This document shows positions 3,672-52,678 of a DNA stretch of 64,000 bases, one piece after another (positions within the stretch are counted from its first letter, which is position 1; every line of letters starts with the position of its first letter). The DNA comes from a virus (lineage: Duplodnaviria > Caudoviricetes), in IMG/VR virus record IMGVR_UViG_3300025133_000020. One strand, 5' to 3'. The position numbers and the translations under genes are program-made. Below the pieces are notes generated by a model. That model searched no databases and was not told the DNA's origin. It saw only the letters and a program-made list of their open reading frames with translations.

Positions 3672-5338
3672 TGGGCGCTAACATACATAATTACGATTTA
3701 AACAACCTCAAGTTGAGAGTATCCAATAAGGATTATTGGGACTTTAATCTTGTTGATGGAGATGTTCTGGGTTCCGCATATACTGGGGTTACATCGGGTT
3801 CATGCTTCATAACTCATTTCGACTTCAATAACCCTAACATCTATTCAACTGGTTCAACATCTGCCGACACTATCTATTCACTTAGAAGCTGGGAAGATGC
3901 TGTTAACACTGGGTATACACTTACCACTATTGGTATCACAGGAATCGATAATGGTCTGGTCACATTCGATAAAGCTACTGGCGATACGAGCAATACCGCC
4001 TTATTATCAGCCTTAACTGGTACAACGTTAGTTATACCTTCAGGTGATAGTAGATTCATAATGAATCGTGTTACTGGTATGACAGAACAATACATTTACC
4101 CTATCGATATTATGTCAGGTTCAAGTGGTAATCACGCAAGATTGTGTGGTGGGTTCTATCAAGGATACTACAAGTTGGATGGATACAACTATGAGGTGCT
4201 ACCTAACAGAGTACCTAAAGGGTGGACAGCCGAACTATGGGTCAATAAGTCAGATACGGTTTGTAGTGGCTATACGGGCACGACATTGAATGACGACTTC
4301 CCAGATAATAAAGGGTTCTTCTTCTACATGGGTACCAGAGCAGAAAATAAATTCTGGACAGTATTCGGTGGGGTGGATTCTGGTTGCACAAGTGCGTGTA
4401 CCGTACCTTTAGGATGTGTGGATACGGTAACAGAATGGTGTACAGTACCTAAAGAAACAAACATAACATTAGCTGATGGTCACGCTCTAAGCCCACCACC
4501 AACCAGATTCATTACCGTTACAAACGGATTCTTGATTTATGGTAATGGTGCTGGAGGTACTAACCATTACGGTGTTACATATCCTGAAGGTAAAATGGCT
4601 AGAAGCTTTACTGGAGATAGTGTGACTTATATAGCTCGTTCTCAGACGGTTACGGATTTTAGAAATCCATTCTCAATTTATTGCGAATCGTGTAGAAACA
4701 GTAATTGTAATAATGGTTGCGAGACTGTTCAAACATATTCTGGCGCTACTACGAGTGAATTAACTTTAGATGTTGATGCTGATATTATAGATAACGCTAT
4801 AGGGTTCAGGGTGAAGGATGACGGTAGTATTGGGTATAGATTGCTTAGTGTTACTGGTGCGTGTTCTGGTGATACATACACATCTGGTGTTACCGTAACG
4901 GAAGATTATTCGGTTAGTGGTACTGTAAGTGGTGATGTATGGACTAACATAGCTGTTAGGTTCTTCGCGTATGAGACCTATGATGATGATGAATTGGCTT
5001 GTAGTGCAAGACGATTGGGTAGGTTAAGTATATATGTGAATGGTAAGTTGAAGTTATGGGTGGATGACTTCTTAGAGATAGTACCAAGGCGACTTGAAGA
5101 GGATAAGTCTAAACAGGTCGCGGTACCGTATAACATAAGTGTAGGTGGTGGTTCTCAGGGATTATTGGAGAGTATGACGTTTGATGGTCAAGACCCAAGC
5201 GATTTAGGGTTAAATATAGAACAGAATTTTGCTGGAACCTTCGTTGGTGACATCTCACAATTCAAGTTCTATGCCTGTGATTTGAGTTGGGTTGACATCC
5301 AGAACGATTTTAATCAAGAATTATCTAGATATAGCTAA
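3671..5338 (+). CDS. Virion protein with LamG/concanavalin-A-like domain and Cys-rich inserts
   Basis: GWTAELW...WTNIAV...LSIYVNGKL...FVGDISQFKFY pattern typical of LamG folds; TAATG overlap with the upstream gene. Confidence 0.6.
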   Translation: MGANIHNYDLNNLKLRVSNKDYWDFNLVDGDVLGSAYTGVTSGSCFITHFDFNNPNIYSTGSTSADTIYSLRSWEDAVNTGYTLTTIGITGIDNGLVTFDKATGDTSNTALLSALTGTTLVIPSGDSRFIMNRVTGMTEQYIYPIDIMSGSSGNHARLCGGFYQGYYKLDGYNYEVLPNRVPKGWTAELWVNKSDTVCSGYTGTTLNDDFPDNKGFFFYMGTRAENKFWTVFGGVDSGCTSACTVPLGCVDTVTEWCTVPKETNITLADGHALSPPPTRFITVTNGFLIYGNGAGGTNHYGVTYPEGKMARSFTGDSVTYIARSQTVTDFRNPFSIYCESCRNSNCNNGCETVQTYSGATTSELTLDVDADIIDNAIGFRVKDDGSIGYRLLSVTGACSGDTYTSGVTVTEDYSVSGTVSGDVWTNIAVRFFAYETYDDDELACSARRLGRLSIYVNGKLKLWVDDFLEIVPRRLEEDKSKQVAVPYNISVGGGSQGLLESMTFDGQDPSDLGLNIEQNFAGTFVGDISQFKFYACDLSWVDIQNDFNQELSRYS

Positions 5339-5396
5339 GTATTTCACTATTTACTAATAAATAACGTATCGACCTGCGCTTGTCGTGGGTCAGATA

Positions 5397-5403
5397 TATT
5401 TAT
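5397..5403 (+). promoter_or_regulatory. TATTTAT late-promoter-like motif
   Basis: Exact motif 14 nt before the fibre A start; variant TATTTAC at 5348. Confidence 0.55.
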
Positions 5404-5417
5404 AAAAGAAACGATAG

Positions 5418-8400
5418 ATGGCAACTAATAGATTGAAATTAAGAAGCACCGCAAGTCCCTATACTTTCCCACAACCAGATACAGTAAAGGGGTCGGTATT
5501 AAGTTGGGGCGAAGTTGACAACAACTTCATATTCCTTAAGGGTCTTAACATAAAGAACGGTGTGTATGATAGTGGTACTTCTACTATCACTCTTAATCGA
5601 ATAGATGGTACTACAGTTAGCATATCTGGTATTACTGCTGGTGGTGGTGGTACTGGGAATACTGCATACTCATCTATCGATAACTACGTTTCTGCCGTAA
5701 CTAAAACAATTACTCACAATCTTGGAACTACAAGTATCGTTGCTCAATTGGTTGACACTGGGGCTAACGAACAAATCGTAGGTTACCTTAATAACTACCA
5801 ACTTAATTCTGTAGATGTTCTACTTAGTGATACAATACCTGACGTTGAGATATCAATCGTAAGTGTTGGTGGTAGTGGAGCTACTGTTGGTGGTGTGGAT
5901 GTTTTCGTAACAGGTGGTACATACAGTGGTAGTAATATATTATTCGTTAATAATACTGGTGGTACGTTCTCAGTAAGTGGTATTACTGGTGGTGGTGGTT
6001 CTGGTGCTACAATGTTCACATCTACCGATAACTACGTTTCTGGTGTAACTAAAACAATTACTCACAACTTAGGTACTGATGGTGTTATGGTTCAATTGAA
6101 CTACAATAACGAATTGGTGGTTGGTGAGGTAAATAATTATCAAACCAATTCTGTTGATGTGACGATGAGTCAGACCTTGAATAACGTTAAGACGTTAGTT
6201 CTTGGAGGACCTATTACAAGTGGTGGTACTGGTGGTACGGATGTTTTCGTAACTGGTGGTACATATACAGGTACAACAATCATATTCACAAATAACTCAG
6301 GTGGTACATTCAGTGTTAGTGGTATTACTGGTGGTGGTGGTACAGGTACAACTGTATATGAATCAACAGATAATTACATCTCTGGTGTAACTAAAACAAT
6401 TACTCACAGTCTTGGAACGACAAGCATCCTATCACAATTAATTGATACTGGAGCTAATGAAATGATTGATGGGTTCATAGATAACTATCAAACCAATTCT
6501 GTTGATGTTACGTTAAGTCAAACTCTGAACGGTGTTAAGATAGTAGCTGCAAGTATTGGTGGTTCTGGTAGTACTTCACCTGCTGGTTCAGATACATGGG
6601 TTCAATATAATGATAGTGGTTCATTTGGAGCCACAAGTGGTTTTACTTGGGATGGAAGTGAAAAATTAGATGTAACTTCAAACTACAGTGGTTCAACTCA
6701 AAAATTAGTTATCGGTAACCCTAATTTAGCTGGATTAGCTGATTATGATGGTGTGAGTATGACATATAGGAATCCTTTATCTGGTGGAACAAGTGTTATC
6801 ACAGCAGGTAATTTATCTGGTCTTAGTGGGGAAGATAACCATACTGTAGTGGGTTACGTTGATTTTCTGGGTAGTGTGCAACACATGATTACCGCAAGTC
6901 CAGTTACTGGTCTAGATATGTCATCTGAGGTTGGTAGTGATACCGCTAAATTCAACTTAGAAGCTGGTGAAAATGTTAGAGTTGATGTAAATAGTACTGC
7001 CACTACCGCATTCCAAGTTTACGATGGTAATACTGGTACTATCAGATTTGCTGTTGACGTTAACGGTGGTGGTGTTACAATTAATGATTCATTCACATTC
7101 CCTAACGGTGATGGTAATAATGGGCAAGTATTACAAACAGACGGAGTAGGAAACGTAACATGGGAAGATGTTAGTGGTGGTACGGGTAGTACTTCACCTG
7201 CTGGGTCTGATACTCAAATACAATTCAACGATAGTGGTTCATTCGGAGCCAATACTGGTTTTACATTCAGCCCTTTGAGTGGTAACGTGTTATCAGTACA
7301 ATCAGGTTACGGTACAAGTGGTAGTACCACTAAAATGTCCAGACAATTTGTGGGTATAGACTCATTATCATCAATTGAGGGTGCTGGTACACTGTATACC
7401 AATAGTGACGCACCTAATTACGCAACTATAAACGCTATAGGTAATTTGAATACTTTAGGTTTAAGTGATAATGGTGTCGTAGTAGGTAACTTTAATTTCG
7501 GTGGTGGTAGAGTAGGTTTATTTGCTGAGACTGGCGCTACTCAAATGGCGTTAGTAGACAACAACGCTAATTATAATTCTAATGTTTTAGTCGATTATAT
7601 TGGGATAGGATTGAACTATGTTAGTGGTAATACCGAATCATCATTACAAGTTGGTAATGGTGGTGTTCAAGCTCATTTGAATCCAGTATCTGGCGACACA
7701 AAACAATTTGCCGTAACTAATGGTAGTGGTGTTAATTATTTTTCAGTAGATTATAGTCCACAGTATGGTTATAGTGGTATCACATTCTTTGAAGCATACA
7801 CGTTCCCAACAACTGATGGGTCTGCTAACCAAGTACTGGAAACAAATGGTGTCGGTGAATTATCGTGGGTTAGTGTATCAGGTGGTGGTTCATCAATAAT
7901 GGTAGTTGGTGGTGGAAGTAATTCTACAGTTAGAGACGGTGTTGGTAACCAAGCTACAAGTGACCGTTCAGCCGCATTAGGTGGTGGTGGTAATACTGCT
8001 TCTGGTTATTACTCAACTATTGCTGGTGGTAGTACTAATGAAGCTGGTGGTAATTGTTCATTCGTAGGTGGTGGACAAAGTAACAGTGGTACCACGGAAT
8101 ACTCAACTATTGGTGGTGGTTGTGGTAATACCGCTTCAGGTACTTATGCAACGATTGCTGGTGGTGGTGGAATGATGGGTGGTAACTGCGCTACTGGTTG
8201 CGCTTCATTCATTGGTGGTGGTGGTGCTAATACAGCATCTGGATATTATTCAGTAGTTGCTGGTGGTGGTGGAATGGGTGGTAGTAATTCCGCTTCAGGT
8301 AACTACTCTGCCGTTTTAGGTGGTTATGGTAATACCGCTATTGCTCATGGTTCAACAGTTGGTGGTGGGTATAATAACACAGCTTCAGGTTATTATTCAG

Positions 8401-8726
8401 TAGTAGCTGGTGGTAATGGTAATACCGCTTCAGGTTTCTGTTCAACGATTGTTGGTGGGCAAGATAATACTGCTGGTGGAGCTAAGGCTGCCATTGTTGG
8501 TGGTTTAAATAATACAGCATCGGGTGATTACTCATTCGTTGGTAATGGTAATAATAATACTGATAGTGGGTGCTCATGCGCAATGATTGTTGGTAGTAAT
8601 ATAACCGCAGATAGAGCTTGTACAACATTCATGAATAACCTATCAGTAAAGAATATTCCAACAAGCGCTGCTGGATTACCTTCAGGTTCTGTATGGAGTT
8701 CTGGTGGAACATTAATGATAGTATAA
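5418..8726 (+). CDS. Tail fibre/adhesin-like protein A
   Basis: 1102 aa. N-terminal KGSVLSWGEVDNNF attachment-type motif; 3x ITH(N/S)LGT repeats; 2x FP..DG.NGQVL.T.G.G...W; about 13 copies of a 15-aa xSxIGGGxxNxASG repeat. Confidence 0.8.
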   Translation: MATNRLKLRSTASPYTFPQPDTVKGSVLSWGEVDNNFIFLKGLNIKNGVYDSGTSTITLNRIDGTTVSISGITAGGGGTGNTAYSSIDNYVSAVTKTITHNLGTTSIVAQLVDTGANEQIVGYLNNYQLNSVDVLLSDTIPDVEISIVSVGGSGATVGGVDVFVTGGTYSGSNILFVNNTGGTFSVSGITGGGGSGATMFTSTDNYVSGVTKTITHNLGTDGVMVQLNYNNELVVGEVNNYQTNSVDVTMSQTLNNVKTLVLGGPITSGGTGGTDVFVTGGTYTGTTIIFTNNSGGTFSVSGITGGGGTGTTVYESTDNYISGVTKTITHSLGTTSILSQLIDTGANEMIDGFIDNYQTNSVDVTLSQTLNGVKIVAASIGGSGSTSPAGSDTWVQYNDSGSFGATSGFTWDGSEKLDVTSNYSGSTQKLVIGNPNLAGLADYDGVSMTYRNPLSGGTSVITAGNLSGLSGEDNHTVVGYVDFLGSVQHMITASPVTGLDMSSEVGSDTAKFNLEAGENVRVDVNSTATTAFQVYDGNTGTIRFAVDVNGGGVTINDSFTFPNGDGNNGQVLQTDGVGNVTWEDVSGGTGSTSPAGSDTQIQFNDSGSFGANTGFTFSPLSGNVLSVQSGYGTSGSTTKMSRQFVGIDSLSSIEGAGTLYTNSDAPNYATINAIGNLNTLGLSDNGVVVGNFNFGGGRVGLFAETGATQMALVDNNANYNSNVLVDYIGIGLNYVSGNTESSLQVGNGGVQAHLNPVSGDTKQFAVTNGSGVNYFSVDYSPQYGYSGITFFEAYTFPTTDGSANQVLETNGVGELSWVSVSGGGSSIMVVGGGSNSTVRDGVGNQATSDRSAALGGGGNTASGYYSTIAGGSTNEAGGNCSFVGGGQSNSGTTEYSTIGGGCGNTASGTYATIAGGGGMMGGNCATGCASFIGGGGANTASGYYSVVAGGGGMGGSNSASGNYSAVLGGYGNTAIAHGSTVGGGYNNTASGYYSVVAGGNGNTASGFCSTIVGGQDNTAGGAKAAIVGGLNNTASGDYSFVGNGNNNTDSGCSCAMIVGSNITADRACTTFMNNLSVKNIPTSAAGLPSGSVWSSGGTLMIV
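5684..6550 (+). repeat. Three ~60-codon ITH(N/S)LGT repeat units in fibre A (fourth copy in fibre C, ~13655-13850)
   Basis: Units start near 5684, 6021 and 6363; the DNA gtaactaaaacaattactcaca is shared by all three. Confidence 0.85.
7950..8600 (+). repeat. 45-nt degenerate coding tandem repeat (beta-solenoid), about 13 units
   Basis: Consensus xxSxIxGGxxNxASG; Gly almost always encoded by GGT. Confidence 0.85.
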
Positions 8727-8750
8727 ATAATATAGAATAAAAACAATAAA

Positions 8751-11669
8751 ATGGCAGCAAGAAATAATATTTATGGTAACCTAGCGGTTAGAGGAACATT
8801 AAGTTTGAGAAACTTCGAGTTCCCAACATCAGATGGGACAAACGGTCAAGTAATGGTAACCGATGGTGGTGGTGGCTTATCGTGGGTTAACATGTCAGGT
8901 GGAACGTCAGGTTGCTGCTTAGACGTATTCGTAACGGGTGGTACTTATAGTGGTGATACAATCATATTAACTAATACCACAGGTGGTACAGTTAGTATAA
9001 CGGGAATCACAGGTGGTGGCTCTGGTAGCACAAATCCAGGTGGTAATGATTATGCTGTTCAGTTTAATAACACTAATACTTTTGACGGTAACGATGATTT
9101 CACTTGGAATCACGTAGATGGAATCCTTAATGTAACAAGTAGTGCTGGAACTGGTGTTAACAGATTCAGTGTTGGTTCTGCGGTAATAGCGCCAATGATA
9201 GATATTAGCGGTGTTACCTCAAATATTTATGAGAATCCACTATCAGGTGGTAGTTTACACACAGTATCCCTCCAAGGGGACTTAAGTGGGGTTGGCATGG
9301 GTGATAATGGTACCTTTATAGGTAACGTATCTTTAATGGGTGATGATACTGCAACTATAGGTCTAAGTCAAGAAAGGGTTCAATTAAGACATAATGACGG
9401 AACCTACGGTAATAATAACACCACTATTTATCTTGCTAATGGTATACAAATGGAATTACCAGATACTAGTGGTAATACTCTATTTGACCTCAGAAATAGT
9501 AATCATGACCAACTAATTCGAATCCGTAGTTGTGGTGATATAACATTTAATAATTCATATACATTCCCTAATTCCGATGGTAATAACGGGCAAGTATTGC
9601 AAACAGACGGTGGTGGTGTTTTATCATGGGAAGATGCCGCTTCAGGTGGTACATCAGGTGGTTCATCGACATCAATTATAATAACTGGCACTGGTGTGAA
9701 CTCTACAATGCGATGCGGTAATAATAATAGCGCAACGGGTGACTATTCAACCGCTTTTGGTAGGAATAGTATAGCTTCGGGTAATTGTTCAACAGTGAGT
9801 GGTGGATATAATAATAGTGCTGAGGTTAATGGTGATTTTTCCACCATCGGTGGTGGTGCTAGTAATGCGACAACTTGTTGGTTTACGACCATTGGTGGTG
9901 GTAGACAGAATACTGCATCTAACTATTACGCAACCGTAGCTGGTGGTGACCAAAATAACGCTACTGGTAATAATGCAGCCATTGGTGGTGGTGCTAATAA
10001 TACCGCTTCAGGTAATTATTCATTCATAGGTGGTGGTAATAATAACGTGGCTACAGTTGCTAGGGCAGTTGTTGTTAGTGGACAAGAAAATTGCGCTAAC
10101 GGTGACCAATCTTTCATTGGTAGTGGTTATCAAAATATAACTTCTGGTAATCATACAGCAATTGTAGCTGGTTGGGATAATACGGCATCAGCCAATTACT
10201 CATCTATAGGTGGTGGTGCCCATAATACCACATCTGGCGGTACTTATGCGTCAATTGGTGGTGGTCAGAGTAATACGTCAAACGCTGCTAACACAACCGT
10301 TGCTGGTGGTAGTGGTAATACGGCTTCAGGATATGCGGCATTTATTGGAGGTGGAGCATATAATACCGCTAGTGATGCTGCATCAACCGTAGCTGGTGGT
10401 GTAAATAATGTTGGTTCGTGTGTTTATTCAACTATAGCTGGTGGTAAAGATAATATCGCTTCAGGTAATTCAACCACGATTGCTGGTGGAGAAAATAACA
10501 CTGCTGGTGATGACTACACAACCATTGCTGGTGGTAAAGATAATGTCAGTAATTATTACGCATCATTCGTTGGTGGTGGGTGTGGCAATGCCGCTACTTG
10601 TACTTATTCGACAATTGCTGGTGGTAGTGGAAATACAGCATCTGGTGGTTATTCATTCGTTGCTGGTGGTTTGGGTAATACCAATAGTGGTACTGGTTCA
10701 ACGATTGCTGGTGGTATATATAATATCATTAATAGTGATGCTGCTGCATCTACGATAGGTGGTGGATATAATAACACTATTCCGACAGGAACTACTGTGA
10801 CTATTGGTGGTGGGCAATATAACACAGCATCTGCAAATAGAGCAACAATTGCTGGTGGTAGTGGTAATACAGCGTCTTGTCATGGTTCAACAGTAGGTGG
10901 TGGTAAGATGAACAACTCAAGTGGTGATTATGGTACAATCAGTGGTGGTTGGATAAATAATGGTTCAGGTAATTGTTCTGTAATAGGTGGTGGTAGTGAA
11001 AATACTGCCTCTGGTACAATATCCTTCATCGGTGGTGGTAGAGCTAACAGTGCAACTACAACATACTCAACAATCGTTGCTGGGTGTAACCACTTAGCGT
11101 CTGGTCTATATTCATTCATTGGTGGTGGTCAAGATAATACTGCTACAGGTAATCACTCAACCATAAGTGGTGGGTACGATAATGACGCTACAGGTGATTG
11201 TTCTACAATCGGTGGTGGTAAGGATAATATCGCAGAGCAAAACGCAACAATCGGTGGTGGTATTGATAACACCGCATCAGGTTATTACGCGGTTATTGGA
11301 GGTGGTACAAATAATACTGCTAATTCTGGTTGGCACGTAACTATTGCTGGTGGTAATAGGAATACTGGTTCAGGTAACTATGCAACCATAGGTGGTGGTT
11401 GGAGGAATGATGCTTCAGGTGAGTATACAACCGTTGCTGGTGGTAGGTGTAATGTGGTAGACGGAGACGGTTCTGGTATTCTTGGAGGGTATAATAATAG
11501 TATTACTGGTACATCAAAAACGTTTATCGTTGGGGATAATATTACAGCTAATAGAACTTGTGCAACATTCGTTAACAACTTATCCATTACGGATATACCA
11601 ACTAGTGCTGCTGGCTTACCTTCAGGTTCGGTTTGGCGTAGTGGTACTACTTTACAAATTGTAGTATAA
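8751..11669 (+). CDS. Tail fibre/adhesin-like protein B
   Basis: 972 aa; about 39-40 copies of the 15-aa repeat; C-terminal cap (IPTSAAGLPSGSVW) nearly identical to fibre A. Confidence 0.8.
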   Translation: MAARNNIYGNLAVRGTLSLRNFEFPTSDGTNGQVMVTDGGGGLSWVNMSGGTSGCCLDVFVTGGTYSGDTIILTNTTGGTVSITGITGGGSGSTNPGGNDYAVQFNNTNTFDGNDDFTWNHVDGILNVTSSAGTGVNRFSVGSAVIAPMIDISGVTSNIYENPLSGGSLHTVSLQGDLSGVGMGDNGTFIGNVSLMGDDTATIGLSQERVQLRHNDGTYGNNNTTIYLANGIQMELPDTSGNTLFDLRNSNHDQLIRIRSCGDITFNNSYTFPNSDGNNGQVLQTDGGGVLSWEDAASGGTSGGSSTSIIITGTGVNSTMRCGNNNSATGDYSTAFGRNSIASGNCSTVSGGYNNSAEVNGDFSTIGGGASNATTCWFTTIGGGRQNTASNYYATVAGGDQNNATGNNAAIGGGANNTASGNYSFIGGGNNNVATVARAVVVSGQENCANGDQSFIGSGYQNITSGNHTAIVAGWDNTASANYSSIGGGAHNTTSGGTYASIGGGQSNTSNAANTTVAGGSGNTASGYAAFIGGGAYNTASDAASTVAGGVNNVGSCVYSTIAGGKDNIASGNSTTIAGGENNTAGDDYTTIAGGKDNVSNYYASFVGGGCGNAATCTYSTIAGGSGNTASGGYSFVAGGLGNTNSGTGSTIAGGIYNIINSDAAASTIGGGYNNTIPTGTTVTIGGGQYNTASANRATIAGGSGNTASCHGSTVGGGKMNNSSGDYGTISGGWINNGSGNCSVIGGGSENTASGTISFIGGGRANSATTTYSTIVAGCNHLASGLYSFIGGGQDNTATGNHSTISGGYDNDATGDCSTIGGGKDNIAEQNATIGGGIDNTASGYYAVIGGGTNNTANSGWHVTIAGGNRNTGSGNYATIGGGWRNDASGEYTTVAGGRCNVVDGDGSGILGGYNNSITGTSKTFIVGDNITANRTCATFVNNLSITDIPTSAAGLPSGSVWRSGTTLQIVV
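9730..11510 (+). repeat. 45-nt degenerate coding tandem repeat, about 39-40 units
   Basis: Counted by eye from the translation; units are 14-17 aa. Confidence 0.85.
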
Positions 11670-11717
11670 GACTTTACAATTAAAAGGTCTTACTTATATT
11701 TATCAAAACGATGAATC

Positions 11718-12608
11718 ATGAGTAAGACCTTTTCAATTTTCCACATAGAGGGTGGACTAGGAAAACATATTGCTGCTACCGCAGTAGCCGAAGCAATTAA
11801 AAAGAATCACCCAGATAGGGAACTGATAGTAGTTTGTGCCTACCCAGAGATATTTTTGAACTTGGGATTTATAGATAGGGTATACCGTTTAGGTATGGTT
11901 CCATATTTCTATAGAGATTTCATTGACGGGAAGGATTCGCTCATCTTTAAACATGAGCCTTATTTCACCACAGACCACATCCATAAGAGATTACCATTGA
12001 TTGAAAATTGGTGTAAATTATATGATTTGGATTACGGTGGTGAAACCCCGTCACTGGTGTTTAATAGGCGACAACAGGAATTTGGTTACAACAAATGGAA
12101 TAGGGATAAACCTATCGTGGTGATACACACCAATGGAGGACCGATGGATGAACAACCATATCCATATTCTTGGTGTAGGGATATACCAAAAGATTTAGCT
12201 CAATCTATAGTTGATTATTATAGTGTAAGTGGTCATCATGTGATACAGATATGTAGAAACCAAGTCAACGCTTTAAATAACGTTGAAGTGGTCACTGAGT
12301 CAATGGGTAATATGGAGCTATTATCGTTATTATTACTATCACAGAAGAGGATTTTAATAGACTCATCATTACAACACGCAGCCGCAGCCTTAGAATTACC
12401 TTCAACGGTATTATGGGTGGCAACCTCACCAAATATATTCGGATACAGCATTCATAGTAACGTTCAAGCGAATTTACCAGAGACGGTTAAATTACCAGAT
12501 AGTTACCTATTCGACTATAATTTCAATGGTCTAATTCATGAGTGTCCAATATTAGATGAGCCAATTTTCAATTACGATGAAGTTATGGATGTAATACATG
12601 GCACCTAA
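11718..12608 (+). CDS. GT-B fold glycosyltransferase (GT9/heptosyltransferase-like)
   Basis: N-terminal GGLGKHIAATA...HPDRELIVV and C-terminal IDSSLQHAAAALELPSTVLW..TSP..FGY match the GT9-like pattern. Confidence 0.75.
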   Translation: MSKTFSIFHIEGGLGKHIAATAVAEAIKKNHPDRELIVVCAYPEIFLNLGFIDRVYRLGMVPYFYRDFIDGKDSLIFKHEPYFTTDHIHKRLPLIENWCKLYDLDYGGETPSLVFNRRQQEFGYNKWNRDKPIVVIHTNGGPMDEQPYPYSWCRDIPKDLAQSIVDYYSVSGHHVIQICRNQVNALNNVEVVTESMGNMELLSLLLLSQKRILIDSSLQHAAAALELPSTVLWVATSPNIFGYSIHSNVQANLPETVKLPDSYLFDYNFNGLIHECPILDEPIFNYDEVMDVIHGT

Positions 12609-13416
12609 GATATATTTTCAAAGTTCATTACCGAGAGCTGGTTCTACATTACTTCAAAACGTTGTAGGTCAAAACCCAGAGTTCTACGTTACACCAACAT
12701 CTGGCGTATTAGAGCTTGTATATGCTGCCAGAGCCAATTACAGCTCTTCTCCCGAATTTAAAGCCCAAGATGGTGAGTTGATGAAGGAAGGGTTCCTATC
12801 GTTCTGTAAAGGTGGTGTAGAGGGTTTTTTCAAGGCTATCACTGATAAACCATTCGTATTAGATAAGAGTAGAGGTTGGGGTGTCCATTATGGTTTCCTA
12901 AATTCTTTCTACCCAGACCCTAAAATCGTATGTATGATTAGAGACCCTAGAGATATATTCACTTCGATGGAAAAGAACTTCAGGAAGAATCAACATCAAG
13001 ATTCTGGTATAGTGAATCACGCTGAGATGAAGGGAACTACCACTGAGAAACGCATCGATACTTGGGTTAACAGTCAACCAGTAGGATTAGCCATGGAAAG
13101 GTTACAACAAATAGTTAAAGAAGGTATCGATAATAAGATGTTATTCATCAAATTCGAAGACCTTTGTAGTAGACCAGACGTAGAAATGAAACGTATGTAC
13201 AACTACTTAGAATTACCCGAATTTAAGCACGATTTCAATAATGTGGAACAGATAACCATGGAAGATGATTCGGTATACGGTATCTATGGTGACCACAACA
13301 TCAAAACTAAAATTTCCCCACAACCAAGTAAGTATAATGAAATATTGGGTAAGGGTGCATCTGATTGGATTCGAAACCATTATGGATGGTTTTACGATAA
13401 TTTCGGATACGCTTAG
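12598..13416 (+). CDS. PAPS-dependent sulfotransferase
   Basis: 5'-PSB loop SLPRAGSTLL, 3'-PB motif IRDPRDIFTS, and later IKFEDL motif; overlaps the GT gene by 11 nt. Confidence 0.85.
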   Translation: MAPKIYFQSSLPRAGSTLLQNVVGQNPEFYVTPTSGVLELVYAARANYSSSPEFKAQDGELMKEGFLSFCKGGVEGFFKAITDKPFVLDKSRGWGVHYGFLNSFYPDPKIVCMIRDPRDIFTSMEKNFRKNQHQDSGIVNHAEMKGTTTEKRIDTWVNSQPVGLAMERLQQIVKEGIDNKMLFIKFEDLCSRPDVEMKRMYNYLELPEFKHDFNNVEQITMEDDSVYGIYGDHNIKTKISPQPSKYNEILGKGASDWIRNHYGWFYDNFGYA

Positions 13417-13435
13417 ATTTTATCCTTAGTCGGTA

Positions 13436-13442
13436 TATTTAT
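13436..13442 (+). promoter_or_regulatory. TATTTAT late-promoter-like motif
   Basis: Exact motif 28 nt before the fibre C start. Confidence 0.55.
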
Positions 13443-13470
13443 AGTTAGAGATAAAATACTATAAATAATC

Positions 13471-15345
13471 ATGGCTAATTCAAAAATATTTAACGGTGTA
13501 ACCATATATGGTAATCTAGATGTTGGTGGTAACTATACCTTACCGTCTGTAGATGGTAGTAACGGACAAGTACTTCAAACCGATGGTGGTGGTACTGTGA
13601 CATGGCAAGCAGTATCAGGTGGTACTGGTGGTGGCTCAGGTTCAACATACTCATCAACCAATGATTACATATCTGGTGTAACTGGAACAATCACACACAA
13701 CCTTAATTCTATTGACGTTATAGTTCAATTAATTGATACTGATAATAACGAGCAGATTGAGGGTTATATAAACAACTTCCAACTTAATTCTGTTGACGTT
13801 ACCTTAAATGATACACTAACCAACGTAACAACTGTTGTGGCTGGTGGTATATTCGTAAGCGTTTCGGGAGCGACTGGTAGCACAAGTCCAGGTGGTTCAG
13901 ACCAAGATATTCAATATAATAGTAGTGGCTCATTTGCTGGTGATAGTAATTTCACTTGGGATAATGCCATGTCCAACTTTAGTGTTGATAGTACCACTGG
14001 TTATAATAGTATCATAACCAATATTGGTGAGGGTGATGCAACTAATGTTGGTGGTAATACGTTTAGAGGTGCTAGTATGGTATACAATAACACCCTATCT
14101 GGCGCTAGCGCTACCACATCAATCATGATTGGTGACTTAGATGGTTTCTTAGGTGATAATACAGTATTTATGGGTTACGCTAGTACGGGTAAAACTCACG
14201 CTATATTCACGACACCCTTTATAGCGCAGATGGTGGCAACAGATAGTACTACTAATGATAACTCTGTCATCAATGCCACCGTAGATAGGGGTATTACTTT
14301 ATCATCCGATTATCTTGGTCGTCAGGCTCAACTAACCGTATACAATGATGTTAACGCATTTGTACATACTGGTGGCACATTCAACGTGAATAGTAGCTCA
14401 GGTAACCCATTCAAAGTAAATAATGATGGTACTGTAGAGTTTAATAACGCTTTCACCTTCCCTAATTCAGGTGGGACTAACGGACAAGTATTGCAAACCG
14501 ATGGTGGTGGAAACGTAACATGGGCTAACGTATCAGGTGGTGGTTCATCAATCATGGTAGTTGGTGGTGGTGGTGATTCAACGATGAGGTGTGGTGTTTC
14601 GAATGCGTCAAATGGTAATTACGCTGCCGCTTTGGGTGGTTGTGATAACACAGCATCAGGTAATTACTCAGTGATTGGTGGTGGTCCAAGTAATACAGCT
14701 TCAGGTAATACATCTACTATTGCTGGTGGTGCAAATAACTGTACATATGCACCTTATTCAACCATTGGTGGTGGATGGGAGAATACAGCATCAGGTAACT
14801 ATTCAGTTATTGCTGGTGGTGGTGGTATGGGTCAAGGTAATACGGCAAGTGCTTATCACTCTACTATTGGTGGTGGTGGTTATAACGTAGCTAATAAATG
14901 TTTCACAACCGTAGGTGGTGGTGCCGCTAATACAGCTTCAGGGTATTATTCAACCGTTGCTGGTGGTAGTAATAACATCTCAAGTGGTCTCTATTCATCC
15001 GTTATTGGTGGATGGGAGAATACAGCTTCAGGGTATTATTCAACCGTTGCTGGTGGATTCTACAATAGAGCATCTGGTAACACATCAGCCATAATAGGTG
15101 GTTGTGGTAATACTGTGAGTGGTAATTACTCAGCAATCATTGCTGGAGAATCATTCTCATTATCAGCTAATAGTACTGTGATGGTACCAAACCTGATTGT
15201 TAATGATGAGCTTACATTCAATAACATAACAACCACATCTGGTGCGACACTGGGTGCTGGTGGCGGATTACCAGCGATAAACGAAGGGTTTATATCCGTA
15301 GCTATAGGTGGTACAACATATAAAATACCATATTACAACAACTAA
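13471..15345 (+). CDS. Tail fibre/adhesin-like protein C
   Basis: 624 aa; one ITHNL unit, two GQVLQTDGGG modules, about 12 beta repeats; C-cap type 2 (IGGTTYKIPYY). Confidence 0.8.
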   Translation: MANSKIFNGVTIYGNLDVGGNYTLPSVDGSNGQVLQTDGGGTVTWQAVSGGTGGGSGSTYSSTNDYISGVTGTITHNLNSIDVIVQLIDTDNNEQIEGYINNFQLNSVDVTLNDTLTNVTTVVAGGIFVSVSGATGSTSPGGSDQDIQYNSSGSFAGDSNFTWDNAMSNFSVDSTTGYNSIITNIGEGDATNVGGNTFRGASMVYNNTLSGASATTSIMIGDLDGFLGDNTVFMGYASTGKTHAIFTTPFIAQMVATDSTTNDNSVINATVDRGITLSSDYLGRQAQLTVYNDVNAFVHTGGTFNVNSSSGNPFKVNNDGTVEFNNAFTFPNSGGTNGQVLQTDGGGNVTWANVSGGGSSIMVVGGGGDSTMRCGVSNASNGNYAAALGGCDNTASGNYSVIGGGPSNTASGNTSTIAGGANNCTYAPYSTIGGGWENTASGNYSVIAGGGGMGQGNTASAYHSTIGGGGYNVANKCFTTVGGGAANTASGYYSTVAGGSNNISSGLYSSVIGGWENTASGYYSTVAGGFYNRASGNTSAIIGGCGNTVSGNYSAIIAGESFSLSANSTVMVPNLIVNDELTFNNITTTSGATLGAGGGLPAINEGFISVAIGGTTYKIPYYNN

Positions 15346-15362
15346 TAAATAAGAAAAAAAAA

Positions 15363-16994
15363 ATGGCAGGTACTAAAAAAATATACACAGACTTATACGT
15401 AAAGGGCACACTTAACAACAACGGATTCTCATTCCCAGAAAGTGATGGGACGAATGGTCAAGCATTACTAACAACTGGTACAGGAAGTACTGTTTGGGGT
15501 AATATCTCAGGCGCAACGTCAGGTTGCTGCTTAGACGTATTCGTTACAGGTGGTACTTATACAGGTACAACAATCGTATTAACTAATACCACAGGTGGTA
15601 CAGTTAGTATAACTGGAATCACAGGTGGTGGAACAGGTAGTACATTTCCTGGTGGAAATAATACCCATGTTCAATGGAATAATGGTGGTTTATTTGATGG
15701 TACCAGTGGATTAACTTGGGATGGAAGTGAGCAATTCAACGTAGTTTCAGATTACAGTGGTTCAACCCAAAAATTAAGTATTGGTAAGGCTAATTTAGCT
15801 GGATTAGCTGATTACGATGGTGTGGGAATGTCCTATAAGAATCCTTTATCTGCTGGAACAAGTGGTTTATGGAGTGGTAATTTATCTGCCGTTAGTGGTC
15901 AAGATAACCATTCAGTTTTAGGTTATGCAGATTTGATGAGTAATACTCAGAACCTTTTGAGTATTAGCGCTTCTGAGGTAGGAATACAATCTACAACCCC
16001 TAGTGAAAGTTCTTCATTCTCTATGCTGGCTGGTGATGACACTCAAATACAATTAGAAAGTACGGGAACAACAGCTTTTATAGTAAGAGATGGGATTGGA
16101 AACCGTATGTTACAAGTTAATACTGCTGGTGACATCATATTTAACGATAATTATACATTCCCACAAGGTGATGGTTCAAATGGTCAAGTATTATCCACAG
16201 ACGGTGGTGGAAACGTATCATGGGAAAATGCCGCTTCAGGTGGGACGGGTGGTACCTCAATTATGATTGTAGGTGTTGGTTCCAACTCAACAATTAGAGA
16301 TAATGTAGGTAATACTGCTTCAGGTTATTATTCAGCCGCTTTAGGTGGTGGTGGTAATGTCGCTTCAGGTAATTATTCATTCGTTGGTGGTGGGCATGAT
16401 AATACAGCTTCAAATTATTGTGCAACAGTGGGTGGTGGTAAATGTAATATTGCTTCAGGTAATACTTCAACCGTATCTGGTGGGTATCAGAATACTGCTG
16501 GTAATAGTAACTCAGCAGTCGGTGGTGGTATTGATAACACCGCATCAGGTTATTACGCGGTTATTGGAGGTGGAGCATATAATACCGCTAGTGGTGCTGC
16601 ATCAACCGTAGCTGGTGGTAGTAATAACGCCTCTTCGGGTCAAGGGTCATTCATAGGTGGTGGATGGGAGAATACAGCTTCTGGTGCTTATTCAGTAATT
16701 GGTGGTGGTTTGGGTAATACCGCTTCGGGTTGTTACACATCCGTATTGGGTGGGCAGGGTAACACGGCTTCAGGTAACTATTCATCCGTATTGGGTGGGC
16801 AAGGATTATCTGCTGGAACAAATACATCGGCAGTACCTAACTTAGATATTAACGGTGATATTAGATTAATCGGAACATCAACAGCAACAGAAGCCTTTAA
16901 TGGTTCTGCTGGTGCAGTACCTTCAAGTGCGGCAACTTATGTAACAATAACATTGGATGGGTCAGATTATCTACTCCCATTATTTAGTATTTAA
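15363..16994 (+). CDS. Tail fibre/adhesin-like protein D
   Basis: 543 aa; shares the TSGCCLDVFVTGG block with B and the NLAGLADYDGV block with A; about 11 beta repeats; C-cap type 2 (LDGSDYLLPLF). Confidence 0.8.
   Translation: MAGTKKIYTDLYVKGTLNNNGFSFPESDGTNGQALLTTGTGSTVWGNISGATSGCCLDVFVTGGTYTGTTIVLTNTTGGTVSITGITGGGTGSTFPGGNNTHVQWNNGGLFDGTSGLTWDGSEQFNVVSDYSGSTQKLSIGKANLAGLADYDGVGMSYKNPLSAGTSGLWSGNLSAVSGQDNHSVLGYADLMSNTQNLLSISASEVGIQSTTPSESSSFSMLAGDDTQIQLESTGTTAFIVRDGIGNRMLQVNTAGDIIFNDNYTFPQGDGSNGQVLSTDGGGNVSWENAASGGTGGTSIMIVGVGSNSTIRDNVGNTASGYYSAALGGGGNVASGNYSFVGGGHDNTASNYCATVGGGKCNIASGNTSTVSGGYQNTAGNSNSAVGGGIDNTASGYYAVIGGGAYNTASGAASTVAGGSNNASSGQGSFIGGGWENTASGAYSVIGGGLGNTASGCYTSVLGGQGNTASGNYSSVLGGQGLSAGTNTSAVPNLDINGDIRLIGTSTATEAFNGSAGAVPSSAATYVTITLDGSDYLLPLFSI
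16519..16619 (+). repeat. Chimeric copy of two fibre-B segments
   Basis: 16519-16573 is identical to 11251-11305 (55/55); 16561-16619 matches 10342-10400 (58/59). Confidence 0.95.
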
Positions 16995-17078
16995 CAAATA
17001 AAAAAGGTAGACTATTTATAATAAGACGGTACCGAAAAATTGTTACCACATTATAACACATTAAAAAAACAAGAAAAA

Positions 17079-17453
17079 ATGGCAGATAGCGGAGCAACAA
17101 GCGGAGACACAGTAACAAGTGGAGACACAGTAACAAGTGGGGATACAGTACTGGTTACTGGGGTAACCTTAGATGAGCAAAGTAGAATCGATTTATCGGG
17201 TACAACTAGAATCATAATAAGAGAACCAAAAACGAGAGTTGTGGATAAAATCACTATAAATAGTATAGTAGATTCACCACTAAAACAGCGACTATTCGTT
17301 ATTATAGCAGAGGTCGGTCAGCTTACAATAGCTGAAGGTGTAGACTATATTGCTTTAGGTGATTGGTCAAGGTCTTATGTATATGATTACGTGTATAATT
17401 ACTACAAGACTTTTAAAGGTGATAGCCTTGTAGACGAAGGACTCCCAAAGTAA
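17079..17453 (+). CDS. Small protein after the fibre genes, possible fibre assembly chaperone
   Basis: Likely start is ATG 17079 after an A-rich leader (track start is TTG 17040). The N-terminus is an SGDTVT repeat. The role is inferred from position only. Confidence 0.5.
   Translation: MADSGATSGDTVTSGDTVTSGDTVLVTGVTLDEQSRIDLSGTTRIIIREPKTRVVDKITINSIVDSPLKQRLFVIIAEVGQLTIAEGVDYIALGDWSRSYVYDYVYNYYKTFKGDSLVDEGLPK
17097..17150 (+). repeat. 18-bp tandem repeat x3 (TSGDTV)
   Basis: acaagcggagacacagta / acaagtggagacacagta / acaagtggggatacagta. Confidence 0.95.
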
Positions 17454-17462
17454 GATAATTAA

Positions 17463-17846
17463 ATGGATTTCTTTATAAATAAAGATGCAACCTTACCAGT
17501 TCTAAGAATGGAACTGATTCAGGATGGTAGGTATGAGTGGAGTAGCTTTTTTGATAAGCTACAGAATTCTACTATGTACTTCACCATGTCCAATTTAGAA
17601 ACTGGTGTCAAAAAGATAGGTAAGAAAGTTACAACAGCGTTACTCAAAGAGGAATGTCCAGATTGTGATGATTGTCTTGGTGATGAGTATTACCTATCGT
17701 ACAATTTTACCGCCAGAGATACAAACAAAGAAGGTGTTTATATTGGTAAATTCATTATCGAATTCGATGATGGTTCTGGAACTCTGATTGTACCTCTGCG
17801 TGAGGAACTACGCATCAATGTTATTGGTGGGTCAATCAAGAAATAA
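17463..17846 (+). CDS. BppU-like (baseplate upper/Ig-like) small structural protein
   Basis: FFINKDATLPVL...YxFTARDT..EGVYIGKFIIEF..GxLIVP pattern. Confidence 0.5.
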   Translation: MDFFINKDATLPVLRMELIQDGRYEWSSFFDKLQNSTMYFTMSNLETGVKKIGKKVTTALLKEECPDCDDCLGDEYYLSYNFTARDTNKEGVYIGKFIIEFDDGSGTLIVPLREELRINVIGGSIKK

Positions 17847-17856
17847 GTCCATAGGG

Positions 17857-17887
17857 TTGACACTCTCAATTTTTTTCAGTATGTTCG
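17857..17887 (+). promoter_or_regulatory. Host-RNAP-type (early/middle) promoter of the DNA polymerase
   Basis: TTGACA-N17-TATGTTCG. Confidence 0.7.
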
Positions 17888-17923
17888 TGTTATAATTTTA
17901 CGACCTTATCTATGTTGGATAGG

Positions 17924-17933
17924 TGTTCGAACA
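17924..17933. promoter_or_regulatory. Palindromic operator candidate TGTTCGAACA
   Basis: Perfect 10-bp palindrome in the polymerase leader; identical copy at 52679-52688 in the ssb leader. Confidence 0.5.
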
Positions 17934-17949
17934 ACAAATTAACAACATC

Positions 17950-20900
17950 ATGGCAAACATCAATTCCGAGACCATCGAGAAATTTCTCGCTGGCAAAAAC
18001 CAACAATCTTACATCACATCAATAGAAGTCCCTTATTATTCGAATGAGGCTTCAGTGATAGTAAATCACCCTGAAAGAGGGAAATCAATAGAAAAACATA
18101 AATTCAGACCGTTCGTATGGATGAGACATGACGTTTCAGGTATCCTATACGGTGGTAATAGACTTCTAATCAAACGTGCCATGAACGAATATGGCGTCAA
18201 GATTAAAGAGTTGAAGGTGACGGATGAGACTGGCTTCACCCCAGATAGAATGAAGAACGGTTTTAAATACCTTGCTTCAACAGATAGGAGTTATTCCAAG
18301 TTATTAGAATTCTTCGAGAATGGTGGTATAAAGGTTTATAACGACCCTAACTATTCTCGAATGTTCCAAGCATTCTCACCTACAGAACAATTCATGATAC
18401 AGACTGGTAAGCGTCTGTTCAAAGGTATGGAAGATTACGACCATATCCACAGGTTCCAGTTTGACCTTGAAACGAAAGGGCTTATAGCTGAGGAACATGA
18501 GATATTCCAAATAGGTATGAGTGATAATAAGGGTTGGTCAAAAATCCTTACGACAACTGGCGATACACTACAAGAGCGTAGAGATTCTGAACGACTGAAT
18601 ATTCAAGAGTTCTTCCGAGAAATCATAAGAAAGAAACCAGATACGATTGCAGGGTATTACTCTGAGAATTTCGACTGGGACTTCATCGAGAAAAGATGTA
18701 AGAGGTTAGGGGTACCAATGGAAAATTTGGCTATAACCCTTAACGGTAAGGATAAAATTAAGCGTAGACCTTCTTCTGTTAAGTTAGGTGCCAAGAGTGA
18801 ACATTACGTACAAACGTACTTATGGGGTTTCAACGTATTGGATATCTCTCACGCAGTAAGACGAGCAATGGAGATTAACTCCAACATCAAATCTTGGGGT
18901 CTTAAATATATTACCCAATTCTCTAAAGTACACAAGGAAAACCGTGTGTATGTTCCTGGTAAAGATATCTACAAAACGTGGGCTGATAAGGGAACCGATT
19001 ACTGGTTTTGTGATGAAGATGGTTCTTGGGGGAAGATAAAGCCTGATAGTAAGTTAGAACACAACATGGAGATTGTGTCTGGTTCTTACATTGTAGAGCG
19101 ATACCTTCTTGATGACCTTTGGGAAACTGAAAAGGTTGATGCTATCTACAATCAAGCGTCTTTCCTATTAGCTAAGATTTTACCTACGGGTTACATGCGT
19201 AGCTCTACTATGGGTACCGCAGGTCAATGGACACTTCTATTGGCTGCTTGGTCTTACGAAAATAATCTTGGAATACCTGAATATGGTGAAAAAGAAGACT
19301 TTACGGGTGGTCTTTCACGATTATTAGAGACTGGATATGCTACCAGAGTGGTCAAGCTTGACTTCGCGGCACTTTACCCTAAAACTACTTTGACTTGGGA
19401 TATATTCCCAGATTTGGATATCTCTCACGTTATGAAAGGTCTATTGACCTATGTTGTGGATACCCGTGATAAATACAAATTCCTTACTGCTGAATACTAT
19501 GAGGAAGTTGATAAGCTTAAAGAAACACTTGAAGGGTTGGAGCCTAACACCCCTGATTATCAATTAATTAGCGATGAAATAACTAGGAAAACTAGGTTAG
19601 CATCTGATGCGGATAAGAAGCAGTTACCACTTAAGATATTGGCTAACTCATTCTTTGGTTCTTATGGTGCGCCACACATCTTCCCATGGGGTGATGTTAA
19701 GTGTGCTGAGAGGATTACATGTATGTCAAGACAAAACCTTAGACTTATGGTTACCTTCTTCAAGGATAGAGGGTTCCGACCATTGGTTGGTGATACTGAT
19801 GGTTTCAACTTTGCGGTATTGGATGAAGTGGATGAGTATACTTATACTCCTACTTGTGAGCATAGTTTGACTAAGAAGTATGATGGTACTGAATTGAAAG
19901 GTGTTGAAGCTGTTGTAGCAGAGTTCAACGAAACCCTAATGACTGGGTGGATGGGACTTGATGTGGATGATATTTGTGAAGCCACTATCAACTTTAAGAG
20001 GAAGAACTATGCTAACCTTATCAATGGTAAGGTCAAGTTGGTCGGTAACTCTATCAAGTCTAAGAAGATGCCTACATACATTGAGGAATTCCTTAATATC
20101 GGTATCCCATTATTACTGCATGGTAAAGGTCATGAATTCATTCAAGAGTATTACAAAGAGGTTGATAAGATTTTCAACTACGAGATACCTATTGTGAAGA
20201 TTGCTTCCAAAGGTAAGGTTAATGAGACTTTAGAGTCGTATGAGAGAGATTGTAAGACCAAAACGAAGTCTGGTAGCTATAAAGCTAGAAAGGCTCATAT
20301 GGAGCTTGTTAAGCATCATGAGTTGACTGTTAACATGGGTGATGTAATCCATTATGTTAATACGGGTCAAGCAAAATCTACTGGTGATGTTTCGGTTAAG
20401 ACTGAGAAAGAGAGTGGTAAGAGAACCGTAACCATCAATTGCAAGTACATACCTGAAAGTATGTTAGAGGATAATCCAGACCTTGTTACTGAAGAATATA
20501 ATGCTGCGAGATATATCACAGCACTTAATAAGAAAGTAGTACCGTTATTGGTTTGTTTCGATAAGGAAATACGTGATGAAATTATCATTGAAACTGTTAA
20601 GGATAGAAAGCTTAAAGAATACGTTCTTAAGCCTAGAAGTATGTTCACCGAGAACCAGTGTAAATTGGTTAATAATCAACCTATCGAAGAGAAAGACCAA
20701 GATGATTTCCAGACAGCCCTTATGACTATGGAAGATAAGGAAATCAGATTCTGGGATAAGGTGGATGAAGTACCTCACCTTATGGAAAGTACCGAATGGG
20801 AAGTCCTTAAGCATGACTACCAAGAGCGTAAGCGTATTGAACGTAGAGAAAGCATCAATGCTGAAATCAGTCACATACATCAAGTAGCTAGAAGCTTTGA

Positions 20901-52574: not shown

Positions 52575-52678
52575 TATCAGTTAATCCAACAACAATTATG
52601 ATGGATTTCGACAAGAAAAAAAGGTTAAAAAAGTGACGACTTTTAGGTCTTTTTGGGTGGTAGAATGATATTTATATA

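Follow-up and report, generated by a model that had tools for sequence, protein, structure and literature searches.

A GT9-like protein and a sulfotransferase encoded among the fiber genes of a marine jumbo phage: a candidate module for sulfated sugar on fibers

What would a phage do with a glycosyltransferase-like protein and a sulfotransferase encoded in the midst of its fiber genes? The question is raised by IMG/VR virus record IMGVR_UViG_3300025133_000020 (Duplodnaviria; Caudoviricetes), of which we analyzed a stretch of 64,000 nucleotides (the window), part of the genome of an uncultured marine jumbo myovirus. Two overlapping open reading frames (ORFs) in this window are predicted to encode a GT-B protein resembling glycosyltransferase family 9 (GT9) and a sulfotransferase dependent on 3'-phosphoadenosine-5'-phosphosulfate (PAPS). 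The answer we put forward, tentatively, is that the pair may be a module making a sulfated sugar on the phage's own fibers. The elements under discussion are:

11718..12608, + strand: ORF1 (P0001, 296 aa), GT9-like GT-B transferase by fold, profile and conservation
12598..13416, + strand: ORF2 (P0002, 272 aa), PAPS-type sulfotransferase by Pfam, motifs and fold
12598..12608, + strand: 11-nt overlap of the two, from the ORF2 ATG at 12598 to the ORF1 TAA stop at 12606-12608

The overlap and both sets of coordinates agree exactly with a preliminary description of this DNA, and translational coupling of the GT9-like gene and the sulfotransferase gene through the overlap is likely. A predicted complex of the two proteins, both entered as alignments, scored 0.00, which says nothing either way.

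For ORF2, the earlier call of a PAPS-dependent sulfotransferase is borne out by family, cofactor motifs and fold. P0002 scores above the Pfam cut-offs for both Sulfotransfer_3 (PF13469; 65.3 bits, cut-off 27) and Sulfotransfer_1 (PF00685; 48.7 bits, cut-off 22), and it matches PHROG 27463, whose function is not annotated, at E 5e-37. Across 25 relatives spanning 25-83% identity there is no variation in the residues of the 5'-phosphosulfate-binding (PSB) loop (L11, P12, R13, G15, S16 and T17) or in R115 and S123 of the 3'-phosphate-binding (3'-PB) motif, and the PSB loop aligns with the segment GVPRSGTTL of the tyrosylprotein sulfotransferases (TPSTs). The structure model (predicted local distance difference test, pLDDT, 93.5) has 64 PDB matches at E<=1e-3, nearly all of them sulfotransferases. 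The nearest are human TPST1/TPST2 (Foldseek 3.6e-9; profile E 1.3e-10), followed by CurM, heparan sulfate 3-O-sulfotransferases and Stf9, with StaL also among the matches. Among Swiss-Prot models NoeE ranks first and the TPSTs after it, and the NCBIfam NoeE model matches P0002 at E 1.9e-9 with a score of 36.7 against a model cut-off of 500. On this evidence ORF2 is predicted to be a bona fide PAPS-type sulfotransferase. Its acceptor class is not readable from similarity, as protein-tyrosine sulfotransferases and the carbohydrate enzyme NoeE are equally close to it.

The TPST likeness gives shape to one alternative, in which the sulfotransferase would sulfate fiber tyrosines directly, as TPST and RaxST do, while the GT9-like protein would serve as a non-catalytic adaptor or chaperone docking on the beta-roll fiber. 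TPST1/TPST2 are the best matches among solved structures, R13 and K109 of ORF2 align with the TPST PSB Arg and with the Lys before the RD motif, and Tyr recurs in the fiber repeats (SGNYS, SGYYS). In the GT9-like protein the catalytic Asp is also replaced by Lys, and inactive GT9-fold proteins are found among its fold matches (BimC, which Swiss-Prot names an inactive autotransporter heptosyltransferase, plant PnsB1, itself a subunit of NDH, and NDH subunits). The TPST active site, however, does not carry over. We take the catalytic Glu of TPST to lie in the G-E-E segment after the PSB loop, as in the TPST2 structure. TPST1 C-G-E-E-T lies over V-T-P-T-S of the ORF2 family, in which T32, P33, T34 and S35 are invariant or nearly so, such that the Glu-Glu position is occupied by Pro33/Thr34 and the nearest conserved acid is E39. 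The fiber tyrosines are also without the acidic neighbors that TPST sites typically have, and the GT9-like gene also occurs with no sulfotransferase nearby. Taken together with the conservation and fusions of the GT9-like protein described below, this makes direct tyrosine sulfation an improbable explanation of the pair.

ORF1 is weakly GT9-like in sequence, and its assignment leans on the structure model, which settles the predicted fold. The Pfam GT9 model (PF01075) gives 14.4 bits (E 0.025) and does not reach its gathering cut-off of 22, NCBIfam RfaC models give 13.8 bits against cut-offs of 185-437, and a 51-sequence profile of the family finds WaaF in the PDB at E 0.035; a fused relative, P0371, attains 22.9 bits for Pfam GT9. 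The AF2 model of P0001 has a pLDDT of 95.4, and its 21 best PDB fold matches are all GT9, including WaaF (1PSW, 3.8e-11), a Veillonella protein (3TOV), WaaC (6DFE/2H1F/2GT1) and TibC (4RB4/4RAP). Against Swiss-Prot models the top 16 matches are heptosyltransferase-type GT9 proteins, with heptosyltransferases I-IV first and Aah, TibC, BAHTCr, the inactive BimC and plant PnsB1 ranked lower. Profile-to-profile alignment by hhalign against the aligned E. coli K-12 waaC, waaF and waaU products gives 93.5% probability and E 2.3e-7, the 222 aligned columns covering both domains. The earlier description of a GT9-like GT-B enzyme is therefore upheld for the fold and the best profile matches, while the Pfam score stays below its cut-off and the catalytic Asp13 is replaced by Lys.

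This replacement is the feature that sets the family apart. In the profile alignment, which gives residue equivalences at ~15% identity rather than residue-level structural superposition, D215 and H220 of P0001 align with D261 and H266 of WaaC, which are invariant in WaaC, WaaF and WaaU; K192 aligns with WaaC Y150; and K16 aligns with D13 of the G-D loop, likewise invariant in the three enzymes. Asp13, in the beta1-alpha1 loop of WaaC, is the catalytic base, and P0001 has no Asp at this position. Among 127 representatives of 50%-identity clusters, this position is Lys in 114, Arg in 4 and Asp in 1. The same representatives conserve E/D80 (114), R154 (117), D215 (119), H220 (121) and N248 (119), and also keep P81, W98, P111, D155, S216, Y243 and H246. 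Such a conserved, active-site-like set argues for a working enzyme, and appears to favor altered chemistry over a pseudoenzyme, in which conservation of the donor-site Asp/His and of further polar residues would be unusual. ORF1 is thus apparently an atypical, distinct, phage-only branch of the GT9 fold. Hydrophobic segments are absent from both proteins (the highest Kyte-Doolittle mean over 19 residues is 1.36 for ORF1 and 0.53 for ORF2). Genes of a heptose pathway were found neither in the window nor in the 19 kb upstream of it.

Both families are widespread in aquatic metagenomes. A word-indexed search at E<=1e-3 returned 2499 proteins for ORF1 and 2681 for ORF2; among the matches listed, identities are 66-89%, the sources are marine and freshwater metagenomes and the contigs reach 311 kb. 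An exhaustive search of 50% clusters with ORF1 returned 645 representatives, 134 of them below 1e-30. One match, P0380 (2657 aa, 40 matched stretches), proved to be a translated tandem DNA repeat and was left out as artefactual. The sole GenBank phage record with an ORF1 relative (52% identity) is Marine virus AG-345-L05, labelled Kyanoviridae, in which a divergent sulfotransferase lies two genes upstream of it. Two pattern scans detected no member of the GT9-like family in 185,579 prokaryote species genomes, although the patterns were narrow and support this absence weakly.

If the two enzymes act together, on what would they act? The position of the pair, which the preliminary description placed between two fiber-gene pairs, is confirmed, with two fiber genes on each side and a promoter-like motif in front of fiber 1, ORF1 and fiber 3:

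5418..8726, + strand: fiber 1 (1102 aa), with the motif upstream at 5396
8751..11669, + strand: fiber 2 (972 aa), with a long YadA-head-like array of 14-15-residue beta-roll repeats
11696..11703, + strand: promoter-like motif ATATTTAT, 15 nt before the ORF1 ATG
13471..15345, + strand: fiber 3 (624 aa), with the motif at 13435 and beta-roll repeats in its C-terminal half
15363..16994, + strand: fiber 4 (543 aa), with beta-roll repeats

The four flanking proteins share Gly-rich repeats of 14-15 residues with a consensus near S-T-I-G-G-G-x-x-N-T-A-S-G-x, and their domain matches are to Pfam LbR_Ice_bind (E 7e-10) and UspA1_rep, with YadA_head in ESM Atlas neighbors. A tblastn search with fiber 3 against phages gave zero matches, probably owing to low-complexity filtering.

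The linkage of these genes holds in relatives. We called ORFs and searched custom hidden Markov models in 80 IMG/VR loci with 10-kb flanks and in six metagenome loci, some of the contigs being truncated, and counted 58 GT9-like genes non-redundant at 95% identity. A sulfotransferase directly adjoins 40 of these (gap -11 to +6 nt) and lies within two genes of 46, in several genome contexts and in both gene orders, the opposite order being seen in six. A beta-roll fiber, as detected by a single regular expression that misses other fiber types, is four or fewer genes away in 32/58, against a baseline of 5.6% (P ~5e-25) given by the 21 of 372 genes of one complete 304-kb relative that lie so close to such a fiber. 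The preliminary description had named in advance the loss of fiber linkage in relatives as the outcome that would count against it, and linkage is instead some ten times the baseline. In the complete relative G001 (IMG/VR, 304,365 bp), two sulfotransferase/GT9-like pairs bracket a pair of beta-roll fiber genes at 180202-191769, in the order sulfotransferase, 80-aa protein, GT9-like protein, fiber, fiber, 63-aa protein, GT8, GT9-like protein (302 aa), GT9-like protein, sulfotransferase, APS (adenosine-5'-phosphosulfate) kinase; a second fiber group of this genome, at 259-265 kb, has no such enzymes nearby. At some loci without a fiber, the GT9-like gene lies beside the tail sheath gene.

A second explanation is that the pair modifies a host envelope glycan, such as intermediates of the lipopolysaccharide (LPS) core, O-chain or capsule on the cytoplasmic side of the membrane, for instance to block competing phages, and that the fiber island merely collects such cargo. 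In fold, ORF1 is nearest to the LPS heptosyltransferases WaaF/WaaC, with the autotransporter enzymes behind them; the GT8, GT25 and HtrL/YibB-type genes that relatives have in addition are typical of LPS loci; and NoeE, the nearest characterized bacterial sulfotransferase, acts on a lipo-oligosaccharide. It is also the published interpretation for comparable clusters: the host recognition cluster of pelagimyophages and cyanomyophages is a hypervariable island of tail fibers and LPS-type glycosyltransferases in aquatic T4-like phages, and its glycosyltransferases are read as modifiers of the host O-chain, with no mention of sulfotransferases or of the GT9-like family (Zaragoza-Solas et al. 2020, PMC7029224). 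Set against this, ORF1 does not have the catalytic Asp found in the LPS enzymes, the scans of the 185,579 species genomes do not point to recent capture of the gene from LPS loci of hosts (a weak test), the GT9-like gene can adjoin a sheath gene, and the link with fibers is tight across rearranged contexts, with pairs bracketing fiber genes. We regard modification of the host envelope as less likely than that of the fibers, yet as a serious rival to it. The apparently phage-only distribution, the lack of membrane segments, and a fiber linkage and bracketing that withstand rearrangement together favor the fibers as the acceptor.

A third explanation, that the enzymes act on an unrelated substrate (a small metabolite, a signaling glycolipid or phage DNA) and that their position is incidental, draws on the great diversity of Sulfotransfer_3 acceptors (CurM, StaL and Stf9 being among the matches of ORF2) and on the fact that the sequence does not reveal the substrate. 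Sulfotransferases have been annotated in marine phages, with a function that, according to a paper from 2023, 'remains unclear' (PMC10580990). This is the least probable of the explanations, given the strong linkage to fibers and to other glycosyltransferases through rearrangement and given that no DNA-modification genes lie nearby. A role of the GT-B protein in DNA glycosylation was separately set aside, as there is no DNA-modification context and the linkage to fibers and sugar-modifying enzymes is tight.

The genes that accompany the pair in relatives bear on the nature of the reaction. In many relatives the module is extended: GT8 and a second GT9-like gene precede the GT9-like gene and the sulfotransferase, and APS kinase, an NMNAT-like adenylyltransferase and a DUF2061 protein accompany them; none of these accessory genes occurs in the window or in the 19 kb upstream. 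In eight loci a GT25 gene of 211 aa is inserted between the GT9-like gene and the sulfotransferase. The GT9-like domain is also found fused to an FkbM methyltransferase, at either end (P0257, P0341, P0371), and to GT25 (P0262, P0298, P0267); P0267 is 1169 aa long, and the rest of this protein is uncharacterized. The partners of the GT9-like protein are thus consistently sugar-acting (GT25, GT8, FkbM), and the sulfotransferase fills the slot that a sugar methyltransferase takes in the fusions. This favors sugar transfer followed by sulfation over direct protein sulfation, and the fusion and interleaving of the domain with sugar-acting enzymes (FkbM, GT25) speaks against a mere adaptor for a tyrosine sulfotransferase. 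The second GT9-like paralog (~302 aa; Pfam 18.9 bits) keeps the C-L-G-D loop, as seen at the start of its sequence, and lies directly 5' of the GT9-like gene in many relatives (L038:1596-2504, L046:3932-4834, L001:9075-9983). Phages with this paralog pair an Asp-type with a Lys-type GT9 protein, while the window locus has the Lys type only.

Some relatives may also make the sulfate donor. APS kinase is present in three of five related phage records searched and adjoins the pair in many relatives. The small adenylyltransferase (132-159 aa) has an NMNAT-like HxGH signature, G-R-[YW]-Q-x-P-H-x-G-H, and scores far below all NCBIfam cut-offs; it could be a minimal ATP sulfurylase or a maker of an ADP-sugar donor. 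CysDN and Sat are absent beside the pair in relatives that have APS kinase and this protein. Example accessory regions are L001:11717-13060, L036:8912-9992 and L083:6055-7092, and in locus L046 the small adenylyltransferase lies 3' of the GT9-like gene without a sulfotransferase or APS kinase.

The promoter-like motif in front of ORF1 had been taken as the pair's own. The element is real, at 11696-11703, and is a general promoter-like element of the phage, not private to the enzyme pair: the window has 34 sites of [AC]TATTTAT, of which 21 are intergenic against 6.2% intergenic bases (binomial P ~2e-17), and 18 sites stand in sense orientation 6-70 nt 5' of gene starts, on both strands. It precedes fiber 1 (5396), the GT9-like gene, fiber 3 (13435), the tail sheath gene (29779) and the baseplate wedge gene (61654), as well as SSB-, UvsX- and helicase-like genes, and is lacking in front of fiber 2, fiber 4 and the sulfotransferase gene. 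The simplest reading of this placement is three parallel units, fiber 1-fiber 2, GT9-like gene-sulfotransferase gene, and fiber 3-fiber 4. A scan of 5000-18000 for sigma-70 and terminator consensus sequences gave chance-level counts and no terminator flanking the pair. Example sites of [AC]TATTTAT(A) lie at 909, 5396, 11696, 13435, 17012, 25981, 29779, 32793, 33203 and 35552, and further ones at 52668, 53776, 58050, 60640 and 61654; the element is unlike the T4 late box TATAAATA and stands before structural and replication genes alike.

The route that we tentatively propose for a sulfated sugar on the fibers would then run as follows. The pair would be a late-type transcription unit of its own, between the units of fiber 1-fiber 2 and fiber 3-fiber 4, each behind the same motif, and would supply two soluble cytoplasmic enzymes acting in sequence. 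The GT9-fold transferase would place a sugar on the acceptor, after which the PAPS-dependent sulfotransferase would O-sulfate the transferred sugar. The most likely acceptor would be the phage's YadA-head-like beta-roll fibers, modified in the cytoplasm before virion assembly. Here PAPS may be supplied by the host, or by a gene lying beyond the 83 kb that were examined; many relatives have their own APS kinase beside the pair.

Several observations weigh against this proposal. The position of the catalytic Asp is occupied by Lys in 90% of the family, so the canonical inverting GT9 mechanism is unsupported and ORF1 could be non-catalytic. ORF2 appears equally close to protein-tyrosine sulfotransferases. 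No sulfotransferase lies within two genes in 12/58 GT9-like relatives, and 26/58, counted by the regular expression and on contigs some of which are truncated, are without a repeat-type fiber within four genes. The motif also stands before replication and recombination genes, and late timing of the pair is therefore unproven. GT9 enzymes classically build LPS cores. Finally, the published view of such islands is one of host O-chain modification (PMC7029224).

The wider genome offers further context. Besides the pair and its fibers, the window encodes a tail sheath, a baseplate wedge protein, a family B DNA polymerase, DnaB-, UvsX- and SSB-like proteins and a ribonucleotide reductase, and proteins encoded in it are also present on a 212.8 kb metagenome contig. 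In a megablast search with 11000-14000, no GenBank phage matched at the DNA level. The polymerase ORF, at 17923-21507, is of unusual length, 1194 aa when read from a GTG start, and near it an HNH/homing-endonuclease gene (22782-23867) lies between a neck-like gene and a helicase gene. A separate glycan island lies ~9 to 19 kb upstream of the window in the same genome (L008:10001-19941) and contains a GT2/GT4 fusion, GT2, FkbM, GT11, GT10, methyltransferases and two sugar epimerase/dehydratases, together with a faint sulfotransferase of 211 aa.

A sulfated sugar on phage fibers would, if borne out, probably be new to phages. It would make the pair the first system for protein glyco-sulfation to be encoded by a virus, and a new means of tuning phage adsorption or stability. 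Such a modification would bear on host recognition, on particle charge and stickiness in seawater, on protease resistance and on viral use of sulfur. The pair is conserved in thousands of metagenomic sequences, beside YadA-like fibers and often with APS kinase, which makes it a concrete candidate for decoration of virions with sulfated glycans. More broadly, though we advance this with slightly greater reserve than the proposal for the single locus, an abundant aquatic lineage of jumbo phages may decorate its receptor-binding beta-roll fiber heads with a sulfated sugar by means of a phage-only, Lys-type GT9 protein and a dedicated sulfotransferase, often with its own PAPS synthesis. The Lys-for-Asp branch is itself of enzymological interest, whether it represents a new way of catalysis within GT9 or a pseudoenzyme that serves as an adaptor.

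How does the pair compare with known systems? A literature search found no paper on a GT9-like/sulfotransferase pair, and the comparison is with its parts. The LPS heptosyltransferases WaaC/RfaC and WaaF/RfaF (PDB 2H1H, 6DFE, 1PSW) are the best fold matches of P0001 (E 4e-11 to 4e-9) and have in common with it the GT-B fold, the donor-site motif D-x-x-x-x-H-x-x-A-A-L, a soluble or peripheral nature and a length of ~300 aa. P0001 differs from them in its ~11-12% identity, in being 20-50 residues shorter, in Lys for Asp13 and Lys192 over Tyr150, and in having been found so far on phage and metagenome contigs only. On the sulfotransferase side, NoeE (the Nod-factor fucose sulfotransferase of Sinorhizobium fredii NGR234) and human TPST1/TPST2 (PDB 5WRJ, 3AP1) have the PAPS fold and the PSB/3'-PB motifs of P0002 and are its top fold matches (E ~4e-9), yet at 16-19% identity.

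The bacterial autotransporter heptosyltransferases (BAHTs; PDB 4RAP, 4RB4) Aah, TibC and BAHTCr, of which the first two are paired with AIDA-I and TibA, match the fold of P0001 at ~3e-8 to 1e-6 and offer a parallel in arrangement: their genes adjoin those of repetitive beta-solenoid adhesins that they modify on Ser/Thr, and P0001, encoded beside beta-roll fibers, could modify these likewise. The analogy to Aah/TibC, made in the preliminary description, holds for the GT9 fold and does not extend to enzyme type. The BAHTs rank below the LPS enzymes as fold matches, their catalytic Asp is not conserved in P0001, and residue 2 of P0001 aligns with residue 90 of Aah and residue 97 of TibC and BAHTCr, such that the N-terminal extension of ~90-100 residues is absent (296 aa against 391-409 aa). 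In TibC this extension reportedly forms an iron-finger and part of a dodecamer. To our knowledge, the BAHTs have no sulfotransferase partner.

Among viruses, chloroviruses and mimiviruses glycosylate capsids and fibrils by means of virus-encoded cytoplasmic glycosyltransferases. In mycobacteriophages, as relayed in two later papers, glycosyltransferases encoded beside structural genes decorate the virion, and their multi-domain GT-methyltransferase enzymes parallel the GT9-like-FkbM fusions described here (Freeman et al. 2023, via PMC12619734, PMC12801897). That system differs in its glycosyltransferase families, its targets (capsid and tail tube C-termini) and its hosts, and no sulfation is described for it. 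Modification of the fibers by the pair would parallel Aah/AIDA-I, TibC/TibA, mycobacteriophage virion glycosylation and giant-virus fibril glycosylation.

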